A stretch of DNA of 63,674 bases, the filler included, from Reclinomonas americana ATCC 50394 (lineage: Eukaryota), in assembly GCA_048213135.1 (NCBI GenBank). It is 5 parts of 2 records of this genome, joined end to end, with 100 filler letters (N's around TTAATTAATTAA, not from the genome) between each part and the next. Parts side by side here need not be neighbours in the genome. Positions count along the whole stretch, not along the records: positions 1 to 21,056 come from PS015012.1; positions 21,157 to 46,627 come from PS015013.1; positions 46,728 to 55,060 come from PS015013.1; 2 more parts are not named here. One strand, given 5' to 3'. The notes under the pieces were generated by a model that had not been told where the DNA came from, did no database searches, and worked only from the letters and a program-made list of their open reading frames with translations. Position numbers and translations under genes: made by a program. Within the stretch, counting starts at the first letter, position 1. Each line of letters opens with the position of its first letter. Positions 1,131-49,700 of this stretch are shown here, in pieces.

Positions 1131-4100
1131 TGTATGGACCGGGTGCGGAGACGCGCCTGTCAACCAAGGCCAACAATGCTTCTACTGGTGGCATGCACGC
1201 GCGTGCACGCAGCTCGTCGCGGTCGTCGGAGCTGCGCCGTCAGCCGTCCGAGTCTGGCATGTCGTCCAACCGCAGCAGCGCGGACGACGGGTCGCAGAAT
1301 GGCAGCCGGCATCGTGGCACATCAGTGTCCAGTGGCCTGAGCGACGGTGAGGTGGTGGCAGGAGCGGCGGCCGAGATTGCTGCTGCTGCCGCCGCTGCTG
1401 CCCAGGAGGCAGGCAGCTCACGGTCACGGGGTCTCTCGGCGCCACCTAGTCGAGCACCGGACGGTGGACAGTTGCGTGAACTGCTCGTGACGGTGTCCCT
1501 GCTCGTGCTGACCTGTGCTCTTTCAGGTCGGGTGGTGCGGACGGCGTTTTTGCGCGTCCTCGGTCACGTCTGGTCGACAGTGTGGCGGCTGGAGCAGCCG
1601 CGGCTGCGGCCGATGTGCAGTCCGTCAGGTAAGTCGGGTGGAAGCCACGTTGTGTTTCGCACAGTGAGCTCACATCCGGTGCAGTTCTCGTTCGTCGTCA
1701 CAGAGCCCGGCGGATGAGATGTTCCGGCGGAGTACACCGTGCGTCAGCATCAATAGGCCTTTGTCACATGTCTCCCCTGCTCACTTGCGTGCACAGAACG
1801 GATCACTTGAACGAGCAAGGAGGGCGACGGTTCGTCACTTCTGCTCCCCTCTGTTTGTTTCTTCGATCACCAACCTCACGAGTGAACGGTGGTGTGCGCA
1901 CAGGCCATCCACACCCTCGGCGACGTGTGCCGCAGAGAGTGGCACGCCACTCGCACGCTTCCCCCCGGACGATCCGGAAGGTGGTGGTGGTGGTGGTGGT
2001 GGCGGTGCTGGCGGCGGTGGAGGTGGACGTGCGCGAAGCTCGTCACTGTTATGTCGTGGTGTGGTAGGAAAGGCACCTAGAAGCTTCCCACGTCAAGCTC
2101 ACAGCGTGCTCCACCTCACAGAAGCAATGCCAGTGCTGGTGCTTTCTCGGCGGCCAGTTCTCTGGGGTGTGTGGGCGCTCATTCTTATTTGTGCGTGTAT
2201 CTCTCTTGTGATCTGTGGTGTCTCATCATCACTGCCCGCCACACGCAGAGATGTTCCTGCCTCCAACACTGGATCGCGGCAGGGTCGCAAGCTGCGCACC
2301 CTGCTGATAATAGAGCACGTTGCGTGTGAGATACTGAATTGCGACACCCGCATTGTAGGAATGCTTCCGGTCTTTCGACGGATCCCGACAATGAGGACGA
2401 GCAACCGATGGACAACGTCAATGACGAGAGCGGCGAACGGTGTGGCATTTCTTCACCCTGTGCTATCTTCAAGCTCGGATTTGCTCACGCATATGGGTAC
2501 ATTTGCAGGTGCAATCCGAGCTCGATAATCGTGGCTCCTGCAGATGGCAACAACGCCGCCACGGGCAGGTGAGACGACATCTTTTCCTTTGCCACACACG
2601 CGGTATGCTCACCTACTCTGGTCAGCGATGTGGGCACCAGCGCAGTGCTGAGCGAACAGTTTCGTCGCCACTTCATTTCCTTTACCGCCGTTCGCGTCCT
2701 CTTATCATCTTGCTTTGTGCAGGCCTGCTGCCGAGGCACCAGAAAGGTGTGCAGAATACTATTGTGCGGACTTTCGCTGCGTACATGTCCTCATTTCATT
2801 ATTTTTGCACTCGTTCAGTCAAGCTCGTCCACAATCGCCGTCATCTCCAGTCGCTGCCGCTCGCGTGCTCATTGCCCCTTCGTTGACGCCAGCTGCTCGA
2901 TCGCCACACACCAGTTGCGTGCCATGGGCAATCGCTCGCCTGCTGAGTGATCGCTCACCTGCTCTCCCCTCTGTGTTTGTGTGTACGACGCAGCTCCCGC
3001 ACGGCCGAAGCAGCTGGCGCCTGTGAAGCAGCGTGACACCACACACAGTCCGCAGCCTTCACATTTGTTTACGAAGCAAGTCGTCCGCAGCGTCGATTTC
3101 CAGCACACACCCGTCACTGTGGCCACGCAGCAGACCATGGTGTCGGCCGGTAAGTCAACCTTTTTTCCCTCTCTTCCGCCTGTGTGTACTCACTCACACC
3201 TCTCGGATGGTGCGATCATGCAGGATCGCCAGTGAGCCACATGCGCCATCTGAGCGAGGTCGACACGTGGAGTTCGTCTGCGTCGTCCGGCAGCTCAGCC
3301 GCTTTTACACACGGCGATATGCTGGCGGCACTGCACGCCGATTCGCTCGATGTGGATGTGGCAGATGCGGAGAACGTCGTCGGCTCGGTGGCGCTCATGC
3401 ATGTGGCGGCGCCTCATTCTCCCTCGTTTGCTTTCCGCGACCACAAGCCGTTGTCGCCCGTCAACAATGCGCCAGCGTCTGGTCTTCGATCTCCGACATC
3501 ACTGGAGAATGTGTCGATTGTGACGCAGGATCAGTCGCGTGCCGAGTGCGTTGCCATGAACGCGCCTCGTGCGTCGCCATTGAGCGAGATCACCAACATG
3601 AGTTCCCGTGTGCCTGGCGCCATGTCCAGTCCGCGCGAGGAGCCCGGAAGCCCACCGCCGAGATCGGCTTCGGCAGGCTCGGAGCCCTCTGTTCGTTCGC
3701 CACCCTCACAGTCGCAGCAACAGTCGTACTCGTCGCCGCCCGCACCACCCGCGGCGTCGCTTCGTGCGGCCAGTGGCTCCCCGCCGGCGGTGCCGCCGGC
3801 AGGACTGGCCTCGCCGTCGCATGTGGCGGTGTTGGTGGTGGCCTCTCCACGGCCAGCTACTCCACCTCCGTCGCCGCCGGTGGTCACGGTGGTGGCGTCT
3901 CCACCAATGTCTGACGACGCGGCGGCCAGCGCACCTCCGTCCCACTCGACTGCGCCATCGTCGCCCATGCCGGTGTCGCCCATGCCCGCCGCCGAATCTG
4001 TGCCGTCTCCAGTGCCCTCAGTTGACGAGACGGCTCCGTTGTCTCCAGAGGACCAGACAGCCTCGGCCACGGCAGCCGAAGCAGCAGCATCACCAACAAC

Positions 4101-7100
4101 AGCTGCTGCTGCTGCGGCATCGTCGGCATCGTCGGCCATGGATGACTTTTTCGGATTTGCACCTGTGGTGCCGGCAAAACAGCAGTCGAGCCCGCAGGCA
4201 AGCCTATTCGGCGTTGTCTCCGTGCTGCCGCAGCCGGAGCTGCATCGACAAGAGTCCGACGGCTGCCTCACCATGCGGGATCCGTTCGACGACATGTTCG
4301 ACACTGGTCACGAGCAGGCGGTGCTGAGTGCCGCCGCACAGGATGTTGTGTCGCAGGCGTCTGGCGCTGCTGCTGCTGCCGCTCCACCAGAGGAGCTTGT
4401 CATGTCGCCGTCCGAGTGGCACTCGGATGTTGGCTCCGACATGACGCCGCAGTCAATGTCGACGTTTGGATCGCCGACAGCACCCGTTGGCGTCTCCACT
4501 GCTGGTGCTGCGGCCGCGTCCCTTCCCGCTCTCTCCGCTGGCGATCAGCCTGTGTCACCGGTGCCGACATTGGATTTGTCGCGTGTCTCGAACCCGTCTG
4601 CCGGACCACCGCCACGGCCGGTGGTGCCTGTGCCGTCCAGTTCGGTTCAATCGTCGGCCGGTGCCCCGCATGACGATCTGGCCATGGTGCTCATCACACC
4701 AAAGAGTCCTGCGCCTCCCGACACTCCGCATTCCGCCTCCCATCCCGCCAATTCCAGTGTCGTTGCGTGCTGTGCTTGCATGCCGTGGTTAACAAACAGT
4801 GACACTCATGCGTGCACAGTCGGCGACGCCGCGCTCCGCACGACTGGAGGCCGGAATCATTGATTCATCCGACGAAGAGGAAGAGGAGGAGGAGGAGGAG
4901 GGTCATGGAGCAGCAGTTACCGCAGAAGACGACGAACACGCTGCGCTCACCAGCGTCGCCACACCGAAGAAGCTTGTGGCGGAGCGATCGGTTCGACTGT
5001 CGCTGTGCATGTGTATATGTGTCTCTGCATGTGTTGCTCATTGTGTGTTGCTGGTAGCCGCCGCGTGATGCCACCGCCGCCGCGGGCACGCCACCGACCG
5101 GCGCCGCCGCAGCGCCTCTGGTTTGTCCTTCCTCCTGTGTCGTTTCTCTTTGCCATTGCGTTCTTGCTGACACGAATGATGTGCAGTCGGTCACGCCGGG
5201 TGGCGAAAGTGCCAAGTTGCTTGAGGTGTGGCCAGTGTACGCGCGTACTCTTGTGTTCTGTGTATGGGTGGGCGCTGACACATGCGTCTGTGCTGCAGAT
5301 GGCTACGCGACTGGAGAACATGGACAAGCTGTTGTCGTCGCTGCTGACAGCGTCTCCCGACGGATCTCCGTCACACGCTCGCAGTCGAAGCGAGCAGCTG
5401 CCGAGCAATGCACTCGCTACTGCGGAAACGGTTTGCCTCTGCAGATTGCAGTCATGCATTTCGAGCGTCTTCTTCTCACGCACTGGCATGTGCTGCACAG
5501 TTGTACGCCGGCTCGTCACTCGACGATGTCACGTCGGAGCAGTTCCTGCGCGACGAAGCAGAAGCTGAGGCTGCTGCGGCCTCCCTGTCACTCGGCTCCT
5601 CCTCTGCAGCGCCGCCAGTGGTACCGTGGAGTGCGGGAGCGGTGAGCTTTGCACGTCATGTCCATGGGCTGTCGATGCAGTCTGGCACTCACACTGCGCC
5701 GTCGTCTGCAGTCGCAGACACCAGCCAAGATTGGTGCACTGGCGCCACCTGCTCCGAGCAGTGACGCAGAAGTTGCGCATATTCATCTCGCCCAGCGCAG
5801 CGTTCACCAACTGATCTACGTGTGTGTGTGTGTGCGTGCAGACGCTGGAGCGAGTATTTGTTTCACCGCGCGAGGCCGCAGAAGCAGTTGCGGCAGACTT
5901 CCTGTATACCTCTTTTTGTCTTTTGCTCACACTTGGTGTTGCGAGTAGTTGGGCGTGCTGCTGACGGACTCGGAGGAGGATCTGTCTGGTGATGAATCGG
6001 AGGGCGGCGCGGCCGAGTCGAGCGAGGAAGAGGATTTGCCGCCGGACGCGGGTGTCATCATGAAGTCTCCATCAAGCACGACGACGGGTACTCCCCGATC
6101 GCCACCTTCTGGCACACCACGATCGCTCATGGCTGCTGCGATGGCCGCCGGTGTGTTGCGCTCGCCAACCAACTCCTCGTCGGTGAGTTGTCTCGCTCGC
6201 TGCAACGCACCACCAGCATGCATGCCTCACAATTGTGTATTCTTTCGTAGCCGCGCTCCCAGCCAGTGGTCAAATCGATTCAGCCACTGACGGGTATCGG
6301 TGGTATGACGGCTGGGCCGGTGAGCTGCTGCTGTGTGTGTTGATTTGTGGGCTGCTGTCATGTTCATTGTACCATTGCGTGTAGACGGTGGGCACTCCCG
6401 GCACCGCTTCGTCGCCGGTTTCGAATGTGCTCGTGGCTCCGGCCTCGTCACAGCAGCTGTGGTCGCCTCCGCAGAATCGGGTTTGTCATTGCGTTCCTCT
6501 TCTGACTTGTGTCACGAGACTCACGTGCAACGTGGCGTGCAGCACATTGCGGACGAGTCGATGGACTCACTGCATCCGCCAGTGAAGCATTCGCCCTCAC
6601 CCGGTATCGCGCGAGGCAAGCACTTGTCACCGTCGCAAATGTCCGGTGGCTCGCCTGGTTCTCTCTCGTCGGTGCGCATCGCCTTGACAACGCTTACTCG
6701 CCTATTCAATTCCCGCTCATCATCTCATGTTGTCATTTCCCATCGCGCAGCTGCAACTGAGTCCTGCCAACGTGCACGGCAGCGGCGGCAAGGTTTGCAA
6801 CACGCGTACTTGTGTGGTTGGTATGTGCAATTGTGTTGTTTGCTTATTTCTGTGCCAGACGGGACAGGCGGTCTCCACCGTGACACCACCGCAGCCGGCT
6901 TCGTACCTCGCTGTTGCGTCGCTCTCTTGCTACATTGTCGTCACGTGCTGGATGCTGACGCGAACGTGTGTCTTTGCGCGCAGGTTCCGTCCGACACGTG
7001 GGAGAGTCCAGCGGCACCGGGCGACGCCGCGGAGGGTGGCGCAGCAGCAGCACCGAAGCCTGCAGTCGCTGGTCGTGGCCAACATGCGGCGCGTGGACGC

Positions 7101-10100: not shown

Positions 10101-10125
10101 CACAGTGGCGGAGGATGAACGGTGA
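1131..10125 (+). CDS. Very long Ser/Pro/Ala/Thr-rich low-complexity coding region (multi-exon; extension of the HAP40 gene or one or more separate hypothetical genes)
   Basis: Long + strand open frames (3184-4863, 6333-8534, 8056-10125) interrupted by GT-AG introns with CTNAC branch-like motifs; SP/TP-rich; ends ...VAEDER-TGA at 10125. Some junctions (around 2280-2950) could not be resolved. Confidence 0.5.
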
Positions 10126-10155: not shown

Positions 10156-12693
10156 TTATCGTTTGACCACGTCGCCGTGCTCGGTGGTGACGAGCTCGCC
10201 ACCAAAGCGAGAGGGATCGTTCAGTTCGGGCGGGATGGCCTGATGCATGCGTCGCAACAACTTGCGCAAGTCGCTGGCGTACGCACAATCCAGCGTGAGG
10301 AACGCCGTGGCGTGACCAACGACGCCGGCGCGACCCGTGCGCCCAATGCGATGCACATAATCCTGCAGCGCCTCTGGCATGTCAAACAGGACGACCAGCG
10401 TCACGCCGCTGACGTCGAGTCCGCGGCTCGCCAAGTCTGTGGCCACCAGCACGTCTACCTTGCCTGCATGACACAACAAGGTAAGGACTGGGAAGTGGCA
10501 CTCTGCGACCTGCCACGGTTTCCGCGCACCTTCACGAAACGCACGGAGTACACGGAAACGATACGCTTGTGTCAACTCGCCGTGCAGAGGAGCCGCGTGG
10601 AACTGCTCCTCACGCAGCCAGCGAACAACATTGTCGACCATTTCGTGATTGTTGCAAAAGACCAGCACCGGTGGCGCCGGTGTGCGACGAAGTGTCTCCA
10701 GGAGTCGACGCTGTCACCGACTTGTGAGTTAGGAGAAACACACAACGTGTGTGCACACACACACACAGGTGTCAACAGCAAACCTTCTTGTCTCTGCGCT
10801 GCACAAACTCCACATTCTGAATAATGTCGAACGAGGCCAGCGACTTGTCGCCCACTTCGATAATGACCGGGTCACGTGTGGCCGCCCGCGCCAGTGCATC
10901 CAGTCCAAACGGCAGCGTCGCCGTCATGAGAATGGACTGGCACGTGGAGGTGGCCGACACCAGCTGCGTCGGCTCACTCGGCATGTGAATGGCTCGCAGC
11001 AACTGGTGGAGCACACGACGCACTCAGCATCCAACAGCGACAACTGGATTCACAGCGCGTGGCCAAACCTCGTGCACATCCTCCTGCATACTGATGTCCA
11101 ACATGCGGTCGGCCTCGTCCAGCACCAAGTAGCGCACCCTGCTGATCGGTAAGCCACGAGGCAACACGGCAGCAACGCGACGTGCACGCGACGCAACTCG
11201 GCCAGCGAGATCAGCGATCGGCGAACGAAATCCAGCAGTCGCCCAGGCGTGGCGCACACCATGTGACACCCATGCGCCATGGCCGCCAGCTGCGACGACT
11301 CGGGCACTCCACCGACAACACCCACCATGTACAGCGGATGCGGAACTGTCGCACGAATGAGCAAGCATAGCGAGGGCATGCTCAGTACGAGGACGACGAC
11401 GCACTGGTGGACAACAGCGTGCGTGCCACATTGTAGATCTGCTCGACCAGCTCACGCGTCGGCGCCAGCACCAACACACGCGGCGACGGCACCGCAGTCA
11501 CATGCCCGACAAACATCGCCGGCTGCTCCTCCACCAACCGACACAACGGAAGCAGATACGCCACGGTCTTGCCGGAGCCCGTCGGCGCCGTCGCCAGCAC
11601 ATCGCGACCGGCAAGCACACACGGCACAGTCTGCATCTGCACAGGCGTCGGCACCTGCGCTCCCATGCTCTCCACCAGCACTCGCACAGTCGCCNNNNNN
11701 NNNNNNNNNNNNNNNNNNNNNNNNNNNNNNNNNNNNNNNNNNNNNNNNNNNNNNNNNNNNNNNNNNNNNNNNNNNNNNNNNNNNNNNNNNNNNNNNNNNN
11801 NNNNNNNNNNNNNNNNNNNNNNNNNNNNNNNNNNNNNNNNNNNNNNNNNNNNNNNNNNNNNNNNNNNNNNNNNNNNNNNNNNNNNNNNNNNNNNNNNNNN
11901 NNNNNNNNNNNNNNNNNNNNNNNNNNNNNNNNNNNNNNNNNNNNNNNNNNNNNNNNNNNNNNNNNNNNNNNNNNNNNNNNNNNNNNNNNNNNNNNNNNNN
12001 NNNNNNNNNNNNNNNNNNNNNNNNNNNNNNNNNNNNNNNNNNNNNNNNNNNNNNNNNNNNNNNNNNNNNNNNNNNNNNNNNNNNNNNNNNNNNNNNNNNN
12101 NNNNNNNNNNNNNNNNNNNNNNNNNNNNNNNNNNNNNNNNNNNNNNNNNNNNNNNNNNNNNNNNNNNNNNNNNNNNNNNNNNNNNNNNNNNNNNNNNNNN
12201 NNNNNNNNNNNNNNNNNNNNNNNNNNNNNNNNNNNNNNNNNNNNNNNNNNNNNNNNNNNNNNNNNNNNNNNNNNNNNNNNNNNNNNNNNNNNNNNNNNNN
12301 NNNNNNNNNNNNNNNNNNNNNNNNNNNNNNNNGCCCGCAGCGACACGTGCGCAAAGTCGGTTATGGGTGGAGGCACGCCACCAGTCGATGAGCTCACGTG
12401 AATGCCGTGATCAGCGCGTATCCACTCCGACATGTCTCCATCATCTTGTCGACGTTGTCGCTTGTGCTGCACGGCAACGTCGTCATCGCTGCCGTCGTCA
12501 TGCTCCACTGTGCACGCACATGCATAGTGAGAAGGAGGATAGTGCAGTGAGCAGCACAAAGAGCGCGCGCGCAACGTGAGCGCTTCATTCGCAGTGTGTC
12601 ACGCAGGACATCGTTCTTCCGCCCGTCTTTCACAACGAACGCCACACACGTCATTGTCTGCTTGCTGGTGGTCTCCGTCGCAGCTTCTCTCAT
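10156..12693 (-). CDS. DEAD-box RNA helicase (DDX59/RH41-like), spliced, spans an N gap
   Basis: Q motif PTPVQMQ, motif I APTGSGKT, Ia PTREL, Ib ATPGRLLD, II LDEADRMLD, III TAT, V ATDLASRGLD, VI YVHRIGRTGRAG. Confidence 0.92.
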
Positions 12694-14168: not shown

Positions 14169-16361
14169 TCACCGAGCACTGAATGCGGATGGCGGCGAAC
14201 CAGGTGCCGCCGGATTGGAGTGCGGCGGCGAAAACCGTGGGACACCCGCACGCAGACGATGGTACGCACCGGCAGGCTCCGAGCGCGTTGGCGACGTCGG
14301 CTTGTGCGGCGGTGACAGCTGATGTGTCAGGCGCATCGGCTGATGTGGGAAAGGAAAGGAAAAGGCTTTGAGCTGACAATGACAAGAGTGGGGAGGAAGA
14401 GCGGCAACGATAACGCACCACATGTCGCAGGAGGGAGCTGGGGACTGGGGGCTTGGGATCCTCAAACGCCATCGGCTGGCTCGACAAGAACGGCGGTGCC
14501 GGCTTCATGGGCCAGCGGAATTGCTGCACGATCAATCTCCCCTGTCAGCAACAACAACAACGCGATGCGCAAGTGAGAGGCTGTGCCCAAACGCAACATA
14601 TTCGACTTTGGCGAGTCCAACTTGATCCGGGTGAATGTAGGAGAGGAGTTTTTGTGCGGGAGTCGGCTTGATCTTCAGCTCCTGAATCATCTTGGCCGAG
14701 GAGCCAAATGCCGGACGGCACTCCGGCTGCGATAGAGGCAAAGGGTGAGCAAAGTCGGGTGAATCAATTCTCGCGCGCACAAGGAGGACAAGAACGAAAC
14801 AGGTGGCGGTGGTGGAAGTGGATCCTGCAGATAGGAGAACAGTGGCTGTGGTGTGGTTGCAATCTCGTAGCCCATCTTCGTGGCAATGCCGAACGGTGGT
14901 GACTTGGGATTCGGCGAGGCAGGTGGTGAGGGGCGCGGATCAATGTACTATACACACAAACATACACAAGTGTCAGGCACCCTGTGTATCAACAACACTC
15001 GCGCTCACACACGGATGCGTGTACCGTCAGCAAGTGACTGGCGTCGGTCGGCGGCTTGTCTTGCTCGTAGCCCATGGGTGAGCCGACGCCAAAGGGTGGG
15101 CGTGCCGCCGGCTGTGGTCACCATCAGCGAACAGTTACAACATCGACAACAACAAGTACAACAGAAACTCACCGGCGTACTGTCATCCTTGATCTCTCGC
15201 AAGCAGGTGAGCAAGTCGCCGGATTCGGGCTTTGGTGTCTTCACCTGCCAGCTTTGATGGGAGCTGAACATGAACGGCGGTGGTGGCTTGCGTGCCCTCG
15301 ACCGCGGCGACAGGACATCATTCACCGCCCGCGCTCCAATGGCCTCCACTTGCTCCGCAAAGTAATCCTCCAGCGTCTTGCGCTTCTCCGCCAAACGTCT
15401 GTGGTGGCATGTGTAAGTACCAACGCTCTTCCGTCTCGGAAACAAACGGGCCACGCAACTGCTCCTCCATGGGACTGTGCGTGACCTCGGCCAGCGTGTC
15501 GGAGATTCGCCGCGGTGACCGTGGTGGCGGCTGCGGCTCCTCGTCCGCGCTCTTGGCAGCATCTCGCCACAGAGTACTCGCTCGTCCAGCTGGGAGAGAG
15601 AGAGAGTGAGAAAGAGATGGAGTCCGGAGAATGTGCGCGCACATAGATACTCACTGACAGCTGCGCGCGTGGCCGTCGGTCGCACGACCGGCGCAAACAA
15701 AATCTCGCGACTGCGCTTGACACCCGTTGGACTGCGCGGCGAGCCCGCCGATCGCGGACTGCGGCTCTTATCCAACCTGCCCCCAGGAAGCAAAAAAAGT
15801 CAATGTCCGAGTGCAAAATCAACCGTCAACACTCACACAGCAGGCACTGACCGGTCCAGAATGTCATTGAGTGGCCGCGGCCCAGAAGCCGGCGCCCGAG
15901 TCGGTGACTCATCCGCAGTCGATGACAGTGCCGATGGTCTTCGCCGGCCTCGCAGACTCTGATCAATCTCACTGCATTCGTCGACACACAATCATCATGA
16001 GCACAATGAGTCATGGCAGAGAGGGAAGGAGAGAGAGAGGGAGAGAGAGAGAGAGAGTGAGTGAGAGAGAGAGAGAGAAGAAGAAGAAGAAGGAGAAGAA
16101 GAGTATCCTTCTCTGTGAGTGTGTGTCTCTCTCTCACCTGTTTGTTGGAGGTGGGCCTGTGGGTGAGGGCACACGAGTACTGCGCACGGCCAACTTCTGC
16201 AGTCGCGTCATGGCATCGGGCGACAGTGCGCCGTGTCCTTGATGCTTCCGCTCCACAATGAGCGACTGTGCCGAGGAGGCCACCGAGACCATACTGCTCG
16301 AGTCCTCTGCGCGTCCACTCACTCCACTGTCCACGAGCACAGAGCCCATGGACGAGGCCAT
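14169..16361 (-). CDS. Hypothetical Pro-rich protein with five ~35-45 aa internal repeats (start may lie further upstream, up to ~16950)
   Basis: GT-AG exon chain from MASSMGSVLVDSG (16361) to ...PPSAFSAR-TGA (14169); 3' exons join in frame, some 5' junctions are tentative; repeats PPF-x-S-xx-M-(G/A)-(Y/F)-E...LL(S/T)Y. Confidence 0.55.
16018..16102. repeat. (GA)n/(AAG)n microsatellite inside an intron; similar (GT)n/(CA)n/(GA)n tracts occur in many introns
   Basis: Direct reading of the sequence. Confidence 0.85.
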
Positions 16362-18949: not shown

Positions 18950-20082
18950 TCAGTTTCGCAGCGAAACGAGGACCTCATCGAACACACGCTTCGGTGCATC
19001 GGTGAAGAACATGGTGGCGAACACGTGCGTGCCAAACACCGGGTGGCTCAACACCTTGCAGCAGCCGAGCTCGACCACATCCATACCAAAATGCACGTAG
19101 CGATCGTCGGTCTCGAACAGCGTCGTGCTCGTGTGCGCTCCACGAGCCTGCGCACCAGCGTGTGAGTCACGGGCAGCAAGCTCCCTTTTCACAGGAATAA
19201 AACGCAACAGGTTGTCCACAGCCGGCATCAATGTAATCGGCCCAGTAGCCCTGCTCCTCCAGCGCCGCCACAAGTCGCGATCCGAGACGCTCAAACTGCA
19301 CTTGGCATGTCAGCCACATTCACAACACCACTATCACCACCAGACGACGACGCAACATTCTCATACAGCCGCTCGCGCTCCTGCTCAACCTCGCCGCCCC
19401 ACGTGCTCATGTCGTGCGCGGTCCGTTGTGAGACAGTCGCCACTGTGAGATCGGTCACATCGCGATCCGGGAACAAGTCGGCCAGATCGCGGCGCACGTG
19501 GCGCGGGCACGGGAACGACTTGAGCTCGACCTGCACACCGCATGCAGACTTAGCGTGCGTGCACGTCGACAGCGTGCGCACGCTGCTGCACGCCCTCTCA
19601 CCTCCGTGTCATTCTCCACCACGTCGACCACAAACGGCTTGTCGGCGTGGTAAATGAGGGGATTATCCTCGGGCTTGATGGTCGGCAGCTCCATTCCCGA
19701 CGGCACCGCAGGTCCCACCGCCTCAGTCGCCTACCCGACACACCACAGAATGAGCACAAGAGTGATGAGCGCGCTTCTTTTGGTGAGTGGCAACGCAACA
19801 CGAGCAGCGCGCAGCCACGATCCCACAGCCACTGCCGGTGCAACGACAGGTGTCACCACAGAAGGAGGAGGGGCGCTGCGCACAGAAGCACCAGCGGCCT
19901 GACGCGAGGCTGCACACAAAAGATGCGATCAGTGCGTGTGTGTGCATGGAATCCTCGACCGCGCACGTGTGTGTGTGTGTGTGTGTGTCTCGCACACCAG
20001 CAGAGGGAACTCCCGTCACTGGTGCCTCACGTGTGAACAAGTTGCGAGTGCCGTTGCGTAGGGCCTGAGCAGCGCGTCGCAT
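18950..20082 (-). CDS. MMADHC: Cobalamin trafficking protein CblD
   Basis: CPRHVRRDLADLFP, TVSQRTAHDMSTWGGEVEQERERL, GYWADYIDAGCG, TLFETDDRYVHFG..VVELGCCKVLSHPVFGTHVFATMFFTDAP; Arg-rich N-terminus resembling a mitochondrial targeting peptide. Confidence 0.92.
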
Positions 20083-21056: not shown

Positions 21057-21100
21057 NNNNNNNNNNNNNNNNNNNNNNNNNNNNNNNNNNNNNNNNNNNN

Positions 21101-21112
21101 TTAATTAATTAA
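21101..21112. other. Artificial scaffold linker TTAATTAATTAA in N runs (also 46672-46683, 55105-55116, 61367-61378)
   Basis: Identical 12-mer with stops in all six frames, flanked by near-equal N runs, occurring four times. Confidence 0.95.
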
Positions 21113-21156
21113 NNNNNNNNNNNNNNNNNNNNNNNNNNNNNNNNNNNNNNNNNNNN

Positions 21157-32288: not shown

Positions 32289-35162
32289 ATGAGCGAGTTC
32301 AAGCAGCCGCACGATCGACTGGCCTCCTTCTGGAGTGAGGAGCTTGACTACCACTTGGGCGCGCTTTTGCGAAGACACGCGTTTGATTTCGCGCGCGTGG
32401 CTGTCTCTCTGCAGCGCCTCTTCCGCGGCTACCTCACGCGGGAGCACTTGTCTGGCGCACGCAGCGACTTTGACGAGCTGCTCATCACAGAGGGCGTGTG
32501 TCGCGCGCGATGGGCTTTTCTCGACTACCAGGTAAACTGCTCATCTCATTTCGCACACTTTCTTTCTCACTCACTCACACTCACATGCGTGTGACAGCAA
32601 TCACGCGCTGGTGGTGACGTGGCGTTCCCAGCTGAGGCTGTGAAGGTGTGGCGTGCGTTTGAGGGCGGTCGCGCGCAACCAGAGGCGCCTGTCAAGAAGG
32701 CAGTGGTCGTTGAGCAGACTGTGACCAGCAGCAAGCCGCCTGCCACAGTCTCTGCTGCAGTCAAGTCGACCAGTCGAAGCATTCCTGTGACTACTGTGTC
32801 TCACGATGACGATGACGATGACGGTGATGATGATGAAGAGGAGGAGGAAGAGCAGCGAGTGCCGCAGCGAGAGCGACCGGTCAGCAGGAGCAGCAGCAGC
32901 ATGCACTCGTCGAGTGTGCTGGCGGCCATTGATGCCGACAGCAAGCCGTCTTCGTTCTCCATCCTGGAGGACTCGTTGTCGGCGCGCTTTGCGCAGATCT
33001 ATGAGCAGGTGTGGCGATCAATGGAGGAGACGTGTGGTGTTGTGGAGCCCTGATTTCCGTATGTAATGCGCGTGCACACAGGTTCGCGGCAATCTGCCGT
33101 CGGCCAGTGCCACGGGAGATGACAGCGACGACGACGATAGCGATGATGAGGATGTGGTCACGGTGCATCGCGTGCTGGATCGGCGCACTGCCATGCGCGA
33201 TGGTCGCAGGTCTTGTCGACATTTGTCTTTTTTTGTTGACCGCTCGTTGTTGTCGTCCCTCGTCGCTCATGCGGGTGAGTGCACAGCAATGCGTGTGAGC
33301 GGTTTGGCGTGTCGGAGGCCTCCTTTGCATCGGGGAACGATCCCGAGTTGGAGCAGCGGGTGAACGAGGCGTTGTCGCTGCACGACCGCGAAGAGTATGG
33401 CTTCAATCCGGCGTCGCTGCGCTTCGACGATCACTTGGCGGCCGCCTCGGCGGCAAGCGCGGTGGCGGCAGTGGCTGTGCCTGAGAGGGCGACACGCGCG
33501 AGCCCAGTTGTGTCGCCGCTTGCGGTGGAGCCGTCTCGCGCGTCTCCGGCTGCCTCGCCGGTTGCAGCGGGTGCGACAAGAGCGGCGCCACTGTCGCCCG
33601 CTCGCTCGGCAGCACCCGCGTCGACGCAGACCATGTCTCCTGTGCTGCGGTCGACATCCACACAGTCGGTGGAGTCGGCGCCGGCACCGCCACGTCCCAC
33701 TGCCACTGCGTCCACTGGCACCGATGCCAGCATGGGTGACGAGGCTGCGTGGGAGCGTGAATTTTATGCCTCCATTGGTGACGGTATGGACTTTTTTTTG
33801 TAGTTCTGCGTTGGTGGCGACCCTGCTGACAGACTTGATGCTTGTCTCTTCTTTCTCTTGTTTTTGTCGTGTCTGTCAGCGGGTCGCCGCAATGGATCAG
33901 CTGCCGCAGCGCCTGCACCCGCCCCAGCGGCAGCAGCAGCAGCACCAGCTCCCACACGTGCCGCTGTTGTTGCAGCACCCGCGCCGGCTGCCGCTGCTGG
34001 CGCCGGGCTGTTCGATCTGGACTCGGCGCTGGACGACATTGGACTCGATGTGGACGACCTGCTGCGCTCGATGGAGAGCAGCACACGTGCTGCGTCCTCG
34101 GCGACCACCCTGCGCAGTGCTGCGACTGCCGCCAGTGGCAGCAGTGCTGCACCGGCGCGACGCACGGCCAGCAGCGGCACCTCCATGTCCTCCTCCTCCT
34201 CATCGTCGTCGTCATCCATGACCGTGTCTCGCTCGGCCGGTGTTGGCACGGACCAGGAGTATCCGGGAACGCGCAACAGTGGCACCTCGTCCACACAACC
34301 GGCACGCATTATGTATCCGACTGTGGTATCGGCGTCGTCATCGTCGTATGGTGGCAGTGCGTCGGGCTCTGGCGGCGGACGGCGTGCGTCGGACAGCACC
34401 GGCGATGAAGACGCCACACAAGAGGACTCGGACGACCGGTATGTAGTGGCCAGTCCCCCGTCCAGGTAAGTCCGCCATTGTCTGCTTGCCTGTTCGCGCC
34501 GTCTCACTCCACCAATGGTCGCAGCCGACGACCAGACGCTGATTCGCCGCCACGGCGTGCGACTGCCGGCAGGTCTGTGCCGTACGACGCAGGCCGGCTA
34601 CAGAGTCTCATGATGTCATGTTGCGTCGCTCGTCGCTCTTCTGTGCATCCATCGCGCCTCTGACACGCCACGCCACACAGCTGCGAGTGAACTGTCTGTT
34701 GCGCTGTCTGGATCACGCGGTGGAGGCTCTTCCGCATCGTCGGCGGCAGCGGCGTCGGTGGCGGCTGCACCAGCTGGTCCCTCCGGCTCCGGCGGTGCCA
34801 GCGGCAGTGGACGGCCACCACGCGAGGTCACCCACATTCGCCACTTGCCACAGGTCAGTGAATATCGCCACTCGCCGCGTGCACTTGCGCGCCAGTCACT
34901 CACACCAGCTGCTTGCCAGGGCGACGAGGACGACGTTCCGACGGGCCCTGGCGACGAAATGGCTCACTTCTTGCCCGGAAACTACCAGCCGACTCGCTAC
35001 ATTGGTACGCCCCCTCGCGCACTCGTGATACTGCCCGTTGACCACACTGACACACTCGGCGTCGCAGACATTCGACAGGATCGCTCCACACGCCCACGCG
35101 GGCAAGTCACCCAGTTCTCCGACGGTCCACCATCTGCCGGCGCCCATCGACCCTTCCGTTGA
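32289..35162 (+). CDS. Hypothetical protein with an N-terminal Myb/SANT-like domain and a long low-complexity tail
   Basis: FWSEELDYHLGALLRRHAFDFARVA...ITEGVCRARWAFLD (W..E.D..L / CR.RW pattern); GT-AG exon chain to a probable stop at 35162. Confidence 0.55.
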
Positions 35163-35332: not shown

Positions 35333-37676
35333 ATGTCGGTCAACGCACCTGCCGATGAGCAGTACCTGCAGGTGCCCTCACGCGGAGGCGACGGGCGAGC
35401 AAGTCCGCAGCCTTCTCCGCGCAAGAAGGTGGGATTCACGCGCAGCGCACTCAATCTCAAGAAGGAGCCTGTGGCAGGAGCAGCCGCACAGAGCAGTGGT
35501 GCTGGTGGGACGTTTACTCCGCGCTCACACGACAGTGTCGGCAGTTGAGTGTGCTCTTTGGAGAGAGACAGAGGGGAGGAAGAGAGAGTAAGGTGCTGAT
35601 TGTGAGATCTTGTGTTGCAGGTTATGATCACACCAAGCCGCCACCGGACAAGGTGAGCAGCAGCATGTGAGAGCAACAGAGAGAGAGGGACGAAGGAGAG
35701 TGACAGAGAGAGAGAGAGGAAGGGTGGCCATGGCATAGATGTGCGTTTGTTTTGTTGCTCACTCTCTCTCTCTCTCTTGCGCGCGCGCGTAGCACAATGT
35801 GGCGTACTGGATCCTGGTGTTGCTCGGCGCAGGGTACGCACGCAAACATGACAGAACAGACAGATGTGTGTTTTTCCTCACACAATTCTCTCTCGTTCTC
35901 TTTGTGTGCAGACTACTCTTCCCGTGGAACAGCTTCATCTCGGCGCCTGATTACTTTACGTTGCGTGAATCGCTTGCCTTGCTCTCTATCTCTCTCTCTC
36001 TCTCCCTTGCTCACTCACTCGCGATCCACAGGTACTACTATCAGAGCAATATCGAGTTCCTGTTTGCCATGGTGTACACCGTGCCCAACTTCCTCGGTCT
36101 CCTCCTCATGATCTGGATCGGCAATGTTCCGTCCCTCTTCTCTGGCATGTACATGTGGAGTTGTCTCTTGCGTGCTGATTTCCGATGCTCGGGCACAGCG
36201 CTTCAGCTTTGTCGGCAAAGTCTTTGTGTGGTTCACGGTGGCGCTGGTGATTCTGGTGCTGACGCCTCTGATCCCCTCGTTTGGCATGCCGGAGACTGGC
36301 CGCTTGATTTTCGTGCTTGGCCTCGTGTTCATTCAGGGCTTTGGCACGGCCGTGTTGCAGGCCAGGTTCGTGACGTGTGTTTGTGATTCGTTGGCGATGG
36401 GGTTTTAACTGGTGGTGTGTGTGTGCGCAGCATGTTTGGCTTTGCGGCGCTGATGCCTGCCATCTACTCGCAAGCGCTGATGGGCGGCAATGGCTTTGCC
36501 GGCGTCATTGTGTCGGTGTTGCGTCTGATCACCAAGGCCGGCTTGGCGCACAGCTCCAACGGTGAGGCGCGATTCGTTGATGATCACATGTGTATCAATC
36601 GCGTGCACTTATGCTCTCTCCAGCCCTCGAACTGAGCGGCCTGATCTACTTTGTGCTGTCGGCCTTTATTGTGCTGCTGTGCATCATTGCCTTCTGGATC
36701 ATGCTCAAGCTGCCGTTCACGCGCTTCTACATTACCCAAAATCCCGTCGATTCGCTCTATGAGCAGCCGCTGATGCAAGACGAAGCCGAGGCCACGGACT
36801 CGGAGGACTCGGAGGAGGCCATTGTTGCGTCTTTGTTGCCTGTTTCCTTTGGCCTCCGCCCCAACTGATTTCGACGCGCCGACAGCCCCTGAAAGAGGGA
36901 GATGCGTTGCGCTTCCACTCGGACACGCCGGCCTCGTACGGTGGCGAGAAGGATCTGGAGCACTCGGCCAAGGTGACGCACACAGCCAACCTGTGGCACA
37001 TTATCAGGAAGCGCTGGGTGCCGGCGTTCAGTGTGTTCTACACATTCTTCGTGTCGCTGGCCGTGTTCCCGGGAATTGCGACAAGCATCACGCCCAATGC
37101 ATTCGGCGGCTGGTTCAGTGTCATTATTGTGGTGCGACAAGAACTGTAATGATGCGTATGGTGATGATCTTGCGTCTCACTCCACTCGCGCACGCACAGA
37201 CGGTGTTCAACGTGTTCGACACGATCGGTCGTCTGTCGCCCGCCTGGTTCAAGCTGTCCAACGAAAAGTGGCTGCTGGTGCCCGTGCTTGCGCGCAGCAT
37301 TTTCCTGCCCGCCTTTGTGCTGTGCATCAAGCCGCAGGTGTTTGCGTCGCCATGGTGGGCGCTCTCCTTCATGGCCCTCATGGCGTTCACGAATGGCCAC
37401 TTTGGAAGTTGTGTTTCCACAGCCGTTCCCTCATATCCTCATGGCGTTTCTCATCTTTCGTTCATTCTCGCTCAGGTCTGTCGATGATGTTGGGACCGTC
37501 GCATCACTGCCGCACGTTTGAGAAGGAGCTGTGCGGCACAATGATGGTACGCGATTGGAAAGTGCACGATCGTATCATTTTTGTTACAGAAACTGACTCA
37601 TTCACAGACGGCGTCGTTGTTGCTGGGCATCACGGTCGGCTCGTTTGGTGGCATGGGTATTAGTGCAGCAGTTTAG
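35333..37676 (+). CDS. Equilibrative nucleoside transporter (SLC29/ENT family)
   Basis: LLGAG.LFPWNSFISAPDYF, ALMGGNGFAGVIVSVLRLITKA, FFVSLAVFPG, FNVFDTIGR, AFTNGHFGSLSMM; all introns GT-AG and in frame. Confidence 0.95.
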
Positions 37677-40868: not shown

Positions 40869-42019
40869 CAGCAGGGGTGGCAGCAGCAGCCGGTGGCGTC
40901 TTGGTCATTATCTTTTGCGCTTGCTCTCGACATTGCAAGTGGTACGCCTCCTGCGCTCACCACGGATCAGCGCGTGCACACACAGTGCGAGACAACAATG
41001 ACGAGGCGCCGTACCTGATTGTCGCGGAACAAGCGAAGTGCCGCAGCGTTGGCCGGATCATCGGGACTGCAGGCGATCGAGTGAGAAAACAAACCACGGT
41101 TTCAGTTTCGTGCGGAAGAGCGCAACTTGTGCTCCACCAACAGCTCCTGCACACCGAGCAAAATCTGCTTCAACGTAATCGACGGCTGTGGTGCACGAGA
41201 GAGTGTCACAAGCAAGCGCGAGCAGCGGGGAGACAACAAAGGAAGACTCACCCTCCAGTCGGCACTCAAAATCGACAGGCACACGGCGCCACTACACAAC
41301 GAAAAGAGACAAGGGATGAGAAAGCAAGGAGATGCTTCAGGAGAGATTGTAGCAGGTGCGAGTGGTTGGAGACAAAAAAGGGAAAGGGGACGGGGATGAG
41401 AGATGACCGGGAACGGGGCTGTGATGAGCAAGGGGTTTCTCGAGGTGCGCAAGCACGCAACTCAGTGTAGACATTGACGTGATAGAGTGGCGGCTTGAAG
41501 ACGACCTTGGGCGGGGAGAACGGGTGGTCTTCTTGGAACTTTTTTGGCGAGTTGTCAGTGAGCAGGGGCATGCATGCATGCAATGTGTAAAGGAAAATGC
41601 ACACCTGGATCTGCAACTGGTACGTGCCGCCGGCAAAGTCCGACTGTGTGCACGAGTGAGGCGAGGGGAGAGACACACACACGCGCACACTGTGTGACAG
41701 TGAGAGAGAGAGAGCGCGCGTAACATTCGCGGGCCCGGGTATCTCACAGTTCCACGCGAACAGATTGAGAGAGCCATCGCCGAGGGTCGCCGGTCGCGCC
41801 ACGAATCCCTGTAAGAAGGAGATAGTGTGAGGAGAGGAGAGAGGAGAGAGAGCGATGAACAAGAGAGAGTGCGCGCACTGGCAAACGCTCTCGTCGCCAT
41901 CGTTTCCTGCGCGGGCGAGAGTGCATCAGTGGGAATGCACAAAGAGAGAGAGACAATGAGTGTGTATATGAGGTTCACCGCTCTTCCATGAGTCGCGTGC
42001 TTGCAATCGCGTCGCCCAT
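40869..42019 (-). CDS. UBC9: SUMO-conjugating enzyme E2, Ubc9-like (final codons at 40427-40491 on + strand of the inverted contig)
   Basis: [100 protein letters not shown]; catalytic Cys present. Confidence 0.88.
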
Positions 42020-42402: not shown

Positions 42403-44906
<2,504 letters not shown>

Positions 44907-46585: not shown

Positions 46586-46727
46586 TCAACCTATTTACAG
46601 CGCGCCTCTCGGTTCCCCCGCTCCCCTNNNNNNNNNNNNNNNNNNNNNNNNNNNNNNNNNNNNNNNNNNNNTTAATTAATTAANNNNNNNNNNNNNNNNN
46701 NNNNNNNNNNNNNNNNNNNNNNNNNNN

Positions 46728-49700
46728 CAACTCACATCACAAGCACCGCACAGCGGTGAGGCTGATGAGCGATGTGCATCCGCGTTGCAGTATTCGGCAT
46801 CAGCGACCAGTTTTGTCGCCTCGTCACGATCACAGTAGTCGTACGGACACAGATACGTCACAATCGTCGACGGTGGCAATACCGCGCTGCCTGTCCAGCC
46901 TTTCGACAGCACACTTTGAATGCTCCAGTTACCGGTGACGGGGAACGTCCAGAACTGTGACCGCACAGACATCGACAGACCGCCCAGACAGTCGACGTTG
47001 GCCGGACAGGGTGCGCACGTCTGATCGAAGACAGCACTCGGCAGCGAGTACTGTCCGTCTGGGCACGGCTGACACCCGATTGACGAGTACTGCTGGCCTG
47101 CTGGACAGGCAGCAACAGGCAGTTGCAGCATCGGCGGCGCCCCGGCAAAGGTGCCACCACTGCCAGTGAAGAACTGAATGTTGATGGTGTTGCTGTCTGG
47201 ATCGCGATCGTCGACCGGATCCNNNNNNNNNNNNNNNNNNNNNNNNNNNNNNNNNNNNNNNNNNNNNNNNNNNNNNNNNNNNNNNNNNNNNNNNNNNNNN
47301 NNNNNNNNNNNNNNNNNNNNNNNNNNNNNNNNNNNNNNNNNNNNNNNNNNNNNNNNNNNNNNNNNNNNNNNNNNNNNNNNNNNNNNNNNNNNNNNNNNNN
47401 NNNNNNNNNNNNNNNNNNNNNNNNNNNNNNNNNNNNNNNNNNNNNNNNNNNNNNNNNNNNNNNNNNNNNNNNNNNNNNNNNNNNNNNNNNNNNNNNNNNN
47501 NNNNNNNNNNNNNNNNNNNNNNNNNNNNNNNNNNNNNNNNNNNNNNNNNNNNNNNNNNNNNNNGTTTGTGTGACGAGGAGAAGAGGTGAGAAGGATGTAC
47601 TGAGATGTGGGCACAACGCAGGAGGGGTACGCGCAGTGGCAAGGCGAGTGCATCCAGTGTGCAAGCACGTCGGGATTCGCCCGGCTGTGGACCTTCACCA
47701 AGATTCTCGTTTTTGTGCTGTTCATTCACGTGTTCTTCCAGATCGATGTGGGAGGAGGTTTTGTTCTTGCTTCTCTCCAGGCCAGTGCTTCTTTTTTTTG
47801 TTACTCACACTACCACGGGTACCGGTGCAGCCTCGGCCGAAATCATCATCTTCACGCTGCAGACGGCCACGCTGCTGTTCTACCCGAATGTGGAGCTGAT
47901 TTCGCTGGGCCGTCTACTCTCATTTGTTGTTCCGCGCATTGTGGATGTTGGATGCGCGTTCAACACCGATGCCGTGGGCGACATGTTGGGCCGCATCATC
48001 TCGCCGGCAGTGTCGATGGCCACGTTGTGGGCGTGCTTTGGTGCACACTGGTTGCTTGGCAAGGCGCTGACGCACTGCGCCTACCGCGGACGGCTGCATC
48101 ACAGTAGGTCGGCAGGTCGGCGGTGGCAGCGGTTCATCGGCTGGTTCATGCGCACTGCGTCGCCGCATCGGTACATCATGACGAGCATTGTGCTGCTGCT
48201 TGGAGCGTACGAGGGTGTGACGGAGACAGCCATCACGTTCTTCACATGCACTGCGGTGGGCAACAGTCACGTGGTACTCTTCTCGCCGAGTATCGTGTGC
48301 TTCGAGGGAGTGTTGCGTTATCACTGCAGCTGCTGCGCGATTGAAGAGAATTGTCATCATCAGTTGTTCAATGCGCGCGATGCACAATGCAGGTGGCGGC
48401 GCCTCATTCCGCTGTTTGCGGTGTTGCTGGCGGTGACGTTGAGCATTCCAGTGTTGGTGATCCTGTGGACTGCGCGACTACGGCGGCAGAAGAGACTGCA
48501 GGATGAAAAGGTGACGGCATGCATGACGACATGATTGTGAGAGGGTGTGCTGCAGTTTGTGTGTCAGCCGTGGCCGGTCTCGTTGAGATTCGTGAATCTC
48601 GGTGCACACACATAGGTGTATGTATGTGTACTGCTGTAAGCTTGCTCGTGTCTCTCACGCATCGATGTTCCGTGCTACAGACGCGACGCCGGTTCGGCGT
48701 GTTGTATCACCACTTCCGCACGCCGGTTGTTTGGTATCAAGGCGAGTCAATCATTCCGGATCCAGCGTGAGTTGAGTCTCATGATCACACACACACATGT
48801 ACTTTGTTGCGGTTGTCGATGTCATCAGGTTACCAGCTGTGTCGGCGGCTGGTTGTTCTCGGAGTGCTCTTCCCACTCGCTGCCACGGGATCGATCGAAG
48901 TTCTCCCCCTCGCTCTGTGGCTGGTGTGTGTCGGATTCCTCGCGGTGCATCTCAGTGTGCGCGCATACGAACATCAACTGTACAACATTCTGGAGGTGAG
49001 CAGCAGTAATGAAGTGAGTGCGCCGTACCGATTGAGTGTTCGTCTTCTGATTCTTCTTCTTCTTCTTCTTCTTCCTCTTCCTCTTGTACATGTGGCAGGC
49101 GATTGGACTCGGCTGTCTCGTTGTCATCTCCACCATATTCGCGTCGCAAGCATCGACAAACTTCAAGGTCGTTGCCAGCATCACGATCTTGTCGGTGGTG
49201 GGTGCGGTGCTGGTTGGCCCGATGGTGCTGTTTGGNNNNNNNNNNNNNNNNNNNNNNNNNNNNNNNNNNNNNNNNNNNNNNNNNNNNNNNNNNNNNNNNN
49301 NNNNNNNNNNNNNNNNNNNNNNNNNNNNNNNNNNNNNNNNNNNNNNNNNNNNNNNNNNNNNNNNNNNNNNNNNNNNNNNNNNNNNNNNNNNNNNNNNNNN
49401 NNNNNNNNNNNNNNNNNNNNNNNNNNNNNNNNNNNNNNNNNNNNNNNNNNNNNNNNNNNNNNNNNNNNNNNNNNNNNNNNNNNNNNNNNNNNNNNNNNNN
49501 NNNNNNNNNNNNNNNNNNNNNNNNNNNNNNNNNNNNNNNNNNNNNNNNNNNNNNNNNNNNNNNNNNNNNNNNNNNNNNNNNNNNNNNNNNNNNNNNNNNN
49601 NNNNNNNNNNNNNNNNNNNNNNNNNNNNNNNNNNNNNNNNNNNNNNNNNNNNNNNNNNNNNNNNNNNNNNNNNNNNNNNNNNNNNNNNNNNNNNNNNNNN

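Follow-up and report, generated by a model that had tools for sequence, protein, structure and literature searches.

Background

The recognition of 5' splice sites by the 5' terminus of the U1 small nuclear RNA (snRNA) ranks with the best-conserved RNA-RNA interactions of eukaryotes. Sites of the GUUAAGU type, read in a register shifted by one (+1), were reportedly described in human genes by Roca and Krainer in 2009, and sites read in a bulged register are said to have been added by Roca and co-workers in 2012. Here, we present an analysis of a displaced donor motif, GTTGCGY, in a window of 63,674 nt from Reclinomonas americana ATCC 50394 (GCA_048213135.1); the window is the whole stretch of DNA that was analysed and consists of five segments joined by filler. 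An original prediction, made from this DNA alone, had listed 25 introns starting with GTTGCGY or a variant of it and had suggested that the lineage routinely reads such sites one nucleotide out of register. Our results confirm that GTTGCGY sites are genuinely used as donors, and the observation holds.

Shifted and bulged registers have been experimentally established in human cells (PMC4856993; reviewed in PMC9311317), where 1.5% of 201,541 sites use one or another of the validated noncanonical registers (PMC4856993); here and below, the literature is cited for the sections compared. The class studied here, defined in its wider form by T at +3, G at +6 and a base other than G at +5, resembles the human shifted (+1) sites in having U at +3, G at +6 and U at +7 and no G at +5 (PMC4856993, PMC9311317). 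The human sites are GUUAAGU-like, with A at +4 and +5 pairing with two pseudouridines, whereas the GCG core found here mismatches canonical U1 at +5. Cleavage at the true GU has been shown experimentally for the human sites and is proposed for this class, and a strong preference for A or T at exon position -1 sets the class apart from them. With the human bulge +2/+3 sites (68 predicted, 54 curated), the class shares UU at +2/+3 and a downstream consensus displaced by one (PMC4856993), but a bulge would gain from G at -1, which is missing here.

The class is also an extreme case of the "right-handed" sites promoted by LUC7L2-type proteins (bioRxiv 10.1101/2022.12.07.519539), in which the consensus is strong on the intron side and lacking on the exon side; in the window, standard donors lacking G at -1 lean on GTGCGT, and GTTGCGY donors have no G at -1 at all. 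Right-handed sites, however, keep the normal register with G at +5, and a displaced core is not described in the sections of that preprint compared here; no LUC7 gene was found in the window. A survey of 263 species reported a few protists with many introns scoring below 50 on both the major and the minor 5' splice-site matrices and left open whether poor annotation or flexible splicing is the cause (PMC11347168). In several protist genomes, such "non-canonical introns" make up a large share of the introns; the motif does not appear in the parts of the survey compared. Full-text literature searches that paired the motif (GUUGCG, GTTGCG) with splice-site vocabulary gave nothing relevant, as judged by titles and the beginnings of abstracts. 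The class resembles the human shifted-register sites in the way it works and departs from them in its core (GCG instead of AAG), in its rule for position -1 and in its frequency.

Results and discussion

GTTGCGY sites serve as donors

Introns were predicted by a small dynamic-programming gene finder written for this window, in which only GT-AG introns were allowed. The donor-blind form was self-trained, joined codon usage and intron composition to matrices for the acceptor and the branch site and to a length prior, and scored every GT alike; it returned 162 introns with a median length of 73 nt and a CT(C/G)A(C/T) branch site. For the refined models, a first-order donor model trained on the donor-blind set was added, which led to 158 introns in 26 gene models. 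A first version based on codon usage only had proved too weak, with 36 introns and the UBC gene missed.

All 25 sites of the original prediction carry the motif claimed for them at their coordinate and strand, and none has G at exon position -1. As introns, 12 of the 25 were chosen by the donor-blind model and 20 by the refined models, while the other five (12575, 15459, 41126, 42479 and 42656) are absent from the models and look real by eye. Among the donor-blind donors, GTTGCG is the commonest hexamer (12/162) and the most significantly enriched one (binomial p=1.9e-7), the expectation of 1.70 being derived from 41 GTTGCG among the 3,907 sense-strand GT sites in gene spans. It ranks above GTGCGT (10 vs 2.16 expected, p=7e-5). 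The raw frequency of GTTGCGY, proposed as a check on the claim, is not above chance, with 49 copies over the two strands where dinucleotide shuffles give 39.6 +/- 6.0 and 6 of 100 shuffles reach 49; the claim therefore rests on usage as a donor, which lies far above chance.

In the refined models, GTTGCG starts 21 of 158 introns, followed by GTGCGT (14/158), GTGAGT (13/158), GTGTGT (11/158) and GTAAGT (5/158). GTGCGT and GTGAGT are thus frequent, as had been stated for the usual donors, but GTAAGT, named alongside them, is rare and outnumbered by GTGTGT. At +3, these introns have G (70), T (60), A (23) or C (5). The wider class comprises 31 of the 158 (~20%) and strict GTTGCGY 21 (~13%), frequencies that are estimates since the gene models are self-trained and imperfect; human shifted sites stay well under 1%. 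Standard donors, with a purine at +3 and G at +5, number 78. In five conserved genes, GTTGCGY accounts for 10 and the wider class for 12 of 40 modelled introns, and the UBC9 gene, resolved by eye, has eight introns, two with GTTGCGY and one with a variant donor. The displaced motif would serve about one intron in six, with several of them lying within single housekeeping genes. A regular expression that asked for a branch site and a YAG no more than 170 nt from each type of donor was too loose to discriminate (background 34%, GTTGCGY 54%, GTGCGT 39%, GTGAGT 28%) and was discarded.

Protein homology across the junctions

Single in-frame exon pieces, unmodified from the window, were searched against Pfam, and UBC9 exons against PDB chains. 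In MMADHC, residues 1-57 of the 58 in exon 4 correspond to positions 124-180 of PF10229, residues 9-29 of exon 5 to 190-210, which places its residue 1 at 182, and residues 4-53 of exon 6 to 214-263, which places residue 1 at 211. The PF10229 coordinates thus cross the donors 19356 and 19208 without gap or overlap. The approach is validated by junctions at standard donors, in Noc2 (124/127, 251/253) and the IP3R-like gene (26/27), that match with the same exactness.

In UBC9, the exon ending in ...PGPAN stops at position 49 of 5f6d_A and the exon starting with FQEDHPF begins at 63, a gap that the mini-exon after the GTTACGC donor 41724 fills exactly with its 13 residues. Across the GTTGCGT donor 41461, the numbering of 2grr_A runs from T=91 through the split codon (92) to G=93. 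At donor 41126, read-through meets a stop 8 codons on, and splicing gives ...VEHN/PDDPA in agreement with the residues of PDB chains; the donor is needed because UBC9 would otherwise be incomplete. PDB searches with the exon after this donor and with two IP3R-like transmembrane exons gave no relevant matches.

Removal of four class introns (19356, 19208, 41724, 41461) restores a collinear conserved protein exactly. The assertion that frame continuity in conserved genes singles out these sites is thus supported to the residue at two donors each of MMADHC and UBC9; the DEAD-box donor 11197, whose flanking exons match PF00270 at 78-113 and 119-139, is consistent to within 3 residues only. At the ENT donor 36824, the flanking exons match PF01733 at 60-114 and 127-173 with a variable loop between them, so the junction is not exact. 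Pfam searches with 24 further exon pieces beside class donors yielded merely two weak, irrelevant matches.

The UBC9 gene holds a further intron at 41539-41604 (-; donor cag/GTGTGC, the slash here and below marking the exon-intron border), whose 66 nt are a multiple of three without an in-frame stop, which is why the gene finder read through it. Its retention would insert 22 extra residues into the UBC fold, and the PDB alignment skips exactly these.

Anatomy of the donor signal

The base composition of the class at +4 to +9 is close to that of standard donors at +3 to +8 (Kullback-Leibler (KL) divergence 1.26) and far from that of standard donors at +4 to +9 (KL 10.27). On the sense strand in gene spans, GTTGCGY is a donor in 21 of 33 cases in the refined models and in 12 of 33 in the donor-blind model, against 0/24 for GTCGCGY, 0/28 for GTGGCGY and 1/1 for GTAGCGY. 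When the extra base stands at +4 (GTGNCGT) or at +5 (GTGCNGT), the counts are 0/40 and 1/37. The specificity for T at +3 is significant with Fisher p=1.9e-5 (donor-blind) and 1.1e-10 (refined): the extra base must be T and must directly follow GT. The sole sense-strand GTAGCGY in a gene span, at 54376 (+), is the predicted donor (gca/GTAGCGCT) of a 131-nt intron and the single non-T case.

The description of the class as the usual motif with an extra T captures the displaced core, but the class is far more stereotyped than that, with GCG in 21/31 members vs 18/78 standard donors and C at +5 in ~80% vs C at +4 in 34% of standard donors. The exact heptamer GTTGCGT is found in 18 of the 31 members. 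The variants GTTGAGT, GTTGTGT, GTTACGC, GTTTCGT and GTTATGT equal the standard GTGAGT, GTGTGT, GTACGC, GTTCGT and GTATGT shifted by one. In standard donors, G is nearly absent at +4, where A, C and T are equally common.

At exon position -1, G occurs in 0/21 GTTGCGY donors and in 1/31 of the wider class, vs 56/78 standard donors (Fisher p=6.5e-10 for 0/21 vs 56/78). Under a codon-position null, 6.7 of the 21 would be expected to carry it (p=2.6e-4), and under a null that also takes an exonic GTT following into account, 3.9 (p=0.0098). G is also uncommon ahead of non-donor GTTGCGY (3/23; Fisher vs donors p=0.096). A bias exceeding base composition is accordingly significant against standard donors and phase-matched nulls, but not against the non-donor copies of the motif. 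A or T precedes 18 of the 21 GTTGCGY donors, where the two nulls predict 7.7 or 10.3 (p=4.8e-4 for the stricter one), and 27 of the 31 members of the wider class, where they predict 11.5 or 15.1; phase-0 cases have T at the third codon position in 11/14, where the normal share of T is 17%. This excess makes the motif W/GTTGCGY.

The normal register, by contrast, shows compensation: GTTCGT-type donors, which combine T at +3 with G at +5, are preceded by G in 15/23 cases, including every one of the 7 GTTCG sites. Where a standard donor has no G at -1, both GTGCGT (8/22 vs 6/56, p=0.018) and T at +6 (18/22 vs 31/56) are enriched. The enrichment for GTGCGT indicates that exons not ending in G depend on the GCGT core, located at +3 to +6 or, more often here, at +4 to +7.

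The remainder of the intron

Apart from their 5' splice site, class introns are ordinary-looking major-type GT-AG introns. All of them have GT...AG ends, with CAG as acceptor in 28/31, and their median length is 73 nt vs 70 nt in the 78 standard introns (p=0.69). Branch-site scores do not differ either (Mann-Whitney U test, p=0.38; CT(C/G)A(C/T), with the branch A lying 21 nt (median) ahead of the 3' end), nor do intron phases (p=0.63), and acceptors are alike. The class is spread over 14 of the 23 intron-containing gene models and all five segments. An all-against-all blastn of the 158 introns gave three non-self matches (E<1e-3), none of them joining two class members; with no shared sequence, the class introns are not an introner family. 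No auxiliary motif was found in the class flanks after multiple-testing correction, and a hidden canonical donor (GTRHGT) lies downstream in 3/31 class vs 24/78 standard introns. Over all 158 predicted introns, the acceptors are CAG (133), TAG (22), AAG (2) and GAG (1), and the length of introns with standard donors is tight (interquartile range ~62-79 nt).

Minor (U12-type) introns have the donor consensus (A/G)TATCCTT and, a short way from the 3' end, a branch site resembling TCCTTAAC. The class does not fit this type, having GTTGCGY donors and a branch site that is the same as in standard introns. The donors depart from the major-type consensus as well, which has G at -1 and at +5, since G at -1 was seen in none of the 21 GTTGCGY donors and C takes +5 in most of the class.

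Pairing with U1 and a proposed mode of recognition

Nearest-neighbour duplex energies were calculated for each real donor from -3 to +9 against the U1 5' end and are given as means in kcal/mol. For the universal U1 sequence given in PMC4856993, AUACUUACCUG, standard donors reach -6.31 in the canonical, -0.26 in the shifted and -2.89 in the bulge +3 register (mean best -6.36), while the class reaches -0.14, -0.62 and -0.43 (mean best -0.75). Two hypothetical U1 5' ends with G at position 5 (G5) were also considered. With AUACGUACCUG, the values in the same order are -7.61, -0.22 and -2.84 (mean best -7.61) for standard donors and -0.14, -4.09 and -2.99 (mean best -4.25) for the class, and with AUACGCACCUG they are -8.94, -0.22 and -2.84 (mean best -8.94) and -0.14, -5.45 and -4.33 (mean best -5.59). 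Under the G5 variants, the shifted register is the best one for 27-28 of the 31 class sites, and standard donors fit better too.

As universal U1 predicts almost no duplex with the class, we infer either a difference at position 5 of U1 or binding energy supplied by proteins. In the proposed mechanism, the preferred intronic core of the organism, GCGU, would lie one base deeper than usual behind an obligatory U at +3, and U1, later U6, would read the site one base out of the usual register. Intron G+1 would fill the slot of exon G-1 and U+3 that of U+2, G+6 and U+7 would take the slots of G+5 and U+6, and cleavage would stay at the true GU. Either U1 would have G at position 5, pairing with the near-invariant C, or proteins of the small nuclear ribonucleoprotein would give most of the binding energy. 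We give roughly even chances to a one-base-shifted recognition register of this kind, probably aided by a U1 difference or by proteins. It is possible, though doubtful, that the lineage has changed the reader itself, with a U1 unlike the near-universal ACUUACC (G5 being predicted) or a second U1-like snRNA matching GUUGCGU.

Of the evidence on the shifted register as originally suggested, the KL match, the obligatory T and the missing G at -1 speak in its favour, and the near-absent duplex with universal U1, the stereotyped GCG and the T at -1 do not. Several points weigh against both the calling of the sites and their shifted reading. The self-trained refined models might over-call the motif, and independent support that is exact to the residue comes from four junctions only. 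When each donor was forbidden in turn under donor-blind scoring, the median loss stayed below 1 nat in every class, standard donors included, so that exact donors, also the standard ones, are not pinned by coding potential alone. Because G at +6 formed part of the class definition, the register match is inflated. With universal U1, 19 of the 31 class sites have no favourable duplex and 11 favour the shifted register, and C at +5 mismatches this U1 in the shifted and bulged registers alike; the same U1 shifted by one thus fails, by itself, to explain the near-invariant GCG core. With a G5 U1, a U bulge combined with G at -1 would give an even stabler duplex (-7.4 or -8.65 kcal/mol), hence thermodynamics does not explain the absence of G at -1. 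The preference for T at -1 is not predicted by pairing to position 10 of U1. Finally, a U1 with G at position 5 was not found in our literature search, and a search on U1 snRNA with ACGUACCU or ACGCACCU returned nothing.

Instead of shifting, U1 could pair with G+1 and U+2 in the normal register while one U (+2/+3) bulges out and GCGU pairs as in standard donors. Such a bulge requires UU at +2/+3, as seen, keeps cleavage at the usual position with respect to U1 and corresponds to the register known from the human sites counted above (PMC4856993). Exon position -1 would, however, face C9 of U1, and G would be favoured there as it is in standard donors, contrary to its complete absence from the GTTGCGY donors. 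The energy with canonical U1 is also near zero (-0.43 vs -0.14 in the canonical register) and falls short of the gain of -1 kcal/mol or better (ddG) over the canonical register that is used for bulges in PMC4856993, and under G5 variants the bulge loses to the shifted register for 27-28 of the 31 sites; we consider it quite unlikely. An unlikely explanation, too, is a dedicated second U1-like snRNA or U1 paralogue complementary to GUUGCGU, acting beside a standard U1 for GTRNGT donors. It would account for the stereotyped heptamer and its C at +5, for the essential lack of pairing between canonical U1 and the class, for the lack of an auxiliary motif nearby and for the independence from exon G-1, as in U11/U12-type recognition (minor introns have G at -1 in 11%; PMC11347168). 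Against it stand the lack of any snRNA gene within the window, the lack of a single complement to A/T at -1 and the fact that none such was found in the literature search. Moreover, the class variants mirror the standard repertoire shifted by one, and so one reader in two registers fits more naturally than a second snRNA.

The uniform 7-mer at the 5' end, and the A or T at -1 in place of the G of a proto-splice site, might alternatively be historical, the introns having been gained by one process, such as an old mobile introner with an A/T insertion preference, and their 5' end kept by selection. Yet they are alike in splice signals only, no blastn match joins two of them, and their length, branch site, acceptor and phases are those of standard introns; this origin, which in any case would leave unsaid how the sites are recognized, appears very unlikely. 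That the earlier reader and the self-trained models mis-called chance GC-rich heptamers as donors would agree with the unremarkable raw count, with donors not forced by coding potential and with the rarity of G before non-donor GTTGCGY as well. It is largely refuted by the donor-blind enrichment, the four residue-exact junctions and the specificity for T at +3 under both models, and we regard it as highly improbable.

Shifted and bulged registers are regarded as rare exceptions. A genome that uses one displaced motif this widely would be a natural system in which to ask how cleavage is held in place as the U1 and U6 helices move by one base, what exon position -1 contributes and whether the U1 5' end can evolve. 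If the reader has changed, two 5' splice-site codes, W/GUUGCGY and G/GURNGU, would exist in the same genes of one major spliceosome. Gene finders and scoring matrices built on G+5 and G-1 would rate class donors as non-canonical, and donors of this type may form part of the protist "non-canonical introns" flagged in surveys (PMC11347168, in the parts compared).

Catalogue of class introns

Introns of the original list with a GTTGCGY donor that were found by the donor-blind and refined models are 1471..1526 (+; donor aca/GTTGCGTG, 56 nt), the IP3R-like introns 23628..23701 (+; gga/GTTGCGTG, 74 nt) and 23854..23931 (+; cac/GTTGCGTG, 78 nt) and the ENT intron 35960..36031 (+; tac/GTTGCGTG, 72 nt). 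The refined model also holds the listed introns 14542..14597 (-; tat/GTTGCGTT, 56 nt), 24083..24159 in the IP3R-like gene (+; tat/GTTGCGCT, 77 nt) and 48312..48392 (+; agt/GTTGCGTT, 81 nt), and it alone holds 4762..4819 (+; gtc/GTTGCGTG, 58 nt). Equally on the list, the DEAD-box helicase intron 11139..11197 (-; cga/GTTGCGTC, 59 nt) is contained in the models, the ENT intron 36824..36885 (+; att/GTTGCGTC, 62 nt) in both models, and the NOC2 intron 28986..29051 (-; aga/GTTGCGCC, 66 nt) came up in every pass, including the codon-only one. MMADHC contributes 19148..19208 (-; cct/GTTGCGTT, 61 nt), across which PF10229 continues from 210 to 211, 19296..19356 (-; aat/GTTGCGTC, 61 nt), across which it continues from 181 to 182, and 19731..19799 (-; cgt/GTTGCGTT, 69 nt), present in both models with flanking exons that lack a Pfam match. 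The UBC9 introns are 41067..41126 (-; caa/GTTGCGCT, 60 nt), listed and resolved by eye, and 41292..41461 (-; tga/GTTGCGTG, 170 nt), with continuous 2grr_A numbering.

Four introns are rated as probable. These are 12508..12575 in the 5' part of the DEAD-box gene (-; cac/GTTGCGCG, 68 nt), seen by eye on an island between N gaps; 15399..15459 from the original list (-; gca/GTTGCGTG, 61 nt), which is ambiguous because the model took an in-frame GTTTGT 12 nt downstream (15447); and, both by eye, 42479..42548 in the 5' part of the kinase gene (+; tga/GTTGCGCG, 70 nt), with the Pkinase domain downstream, and the kinase intron 42656..42800 (+; ggt/GTTGCGTA, 145 nt), followed by the glycine-loop exon. 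The refined models bring six GTTGCGY donors beyond the original list. Those at 2914..2993 (+; cca/GTTGCGTG, 80 nt), 5772..5841 (+; gaa/GTTGCGCA, 70 nt), 6913..6983 (+; gct/GTTGCGTC, 71 nt) and 62604..62681 (-; tct/GTTGCGTG, 78 nt) are shared with the donor-blind parse, while 34620..34749 (+; cat/GTTGCGTC, 130 nt) and 26162..26318 (-; aga/GTTGCGTG, 157 nt; a weak gene model with score 20.6) are found in the refined model only.

Variant donors of the original list, present in the donor-blind and refined models, start the introns 35544..35620 (+; gca/GTTGAGTG, 77 nt) and 36126..36198 in ENT (+; aat/GTTCCGTC, 73 nt). A further ENT intron, 37408..37475 (+; gaa/GTTGTGTT, 68 nt), is in both models, and its upstream exon matches PF01733 at 189-264; the UBC9 intron 41644..41724 (-; aat/GTTACGCG, GTTACGC, 81 nt) is placed by 5f6d_A numbering. 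Predicted by the refined model are 2048..2121 (+; act/GTTATGTC, 74 nt) and 2659..2722 (+; aca/GTTTCGTC, 64 nt). The intron 14727..14800 (-; cct/GTTTCGTT, 74 nt) was obtained in all passes and shows the largest loss when its donor is forbidden (8.1), and 58359..58437 (+; cga/GTTTCGTC, 79 nt) is in the models from the first pass on. The GTTGGGT site counted among the variants, which starts the IP3R-like intron 22361..22427 (+; cga/GTTGGGTG, 67 nt), is indeed a donor in both models, but with G at +5 as well as +6 its class is ambiguous and it may be a normal-register site.

Gene content and sequence features of the window

Pfam matches were obtained for 8 of the 150 longest stop-to-stop open reading frames (ORFs) in the window. 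They anchor genes for a DEAD-box helicase (-), an IP3R-like channel (+), Noc2 (-), the equilibrative nucleoside transporter ENT (+), a TMEM260-like protein (+) and a UBC enzyme (-), and searches with single exons brought MMADHC (-) and a protein kinase (+) as well. When the window was scanned for Rfam families and tRNAs, there was no snRNA, tRNA or other Rfam family and hence no U1 or U6 gene. Among the models, that of UBC keeps one in-frame intron and mis-sets its ends, that of the kinase is truncated, and the first one, of 10 kb, may fuse several genes. The latter (17-10125, +; ~10 kb) has 35 introns, ORFs of up to 736 codons and 8 class donors; it has no Pfam match and may represent several merged genes or a large low-complexity protein.

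In the protein kinase gene at 42403-45425 (+), which may be GSK3-like, the N-terminal exons are rich in proline and alanine; the glycine-loop exon lies at 42801-42842 and the Pkinase domain at 43889-44239. A gap of 20 N interrupts the gene at 43438-43457, and the model start at 43504 is too late. In the gene model 14169-16361 (-), which has no Pfam match, a short repeat, approximately P-[PA]-F-G-x4-M-x-[YF]-E with K/P-P behind it, is present once in each of several consecutive exons, an exon-per-repeat layout; two introns of this model belong to the GTT class.

The window has a GC content of ~59% outside gaps, is very rich in introns and includes 3,938 N. Four identical linkers, N44-TTAATTAATTAA-N44, are located at 21057-21156, 46628-46727, 55061-55160 and 61323-61422 (centres 21101, 46672, 55105 and 61367), and 13 more N runs of 20-725 bases lie inside the segments. 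The linkers and N runs are the reason why TTAATTAA is the top "enriched" 7-8-mer (17 vs 0.3 expected). Short tandem (CATG)n runs are found at 18 places in the window, e.g. at 38076-38087 and 41568-41579, and CATGCAT occurs 38 times vs 8.8 expected. The runs are mostly situated in introns (9) and intergenic DNA (5), and of the four "exonic" ones, one lies inside the UBC9 intron retained by the model. (TG)n and (CT)n microsatellites are also frequent in introns.

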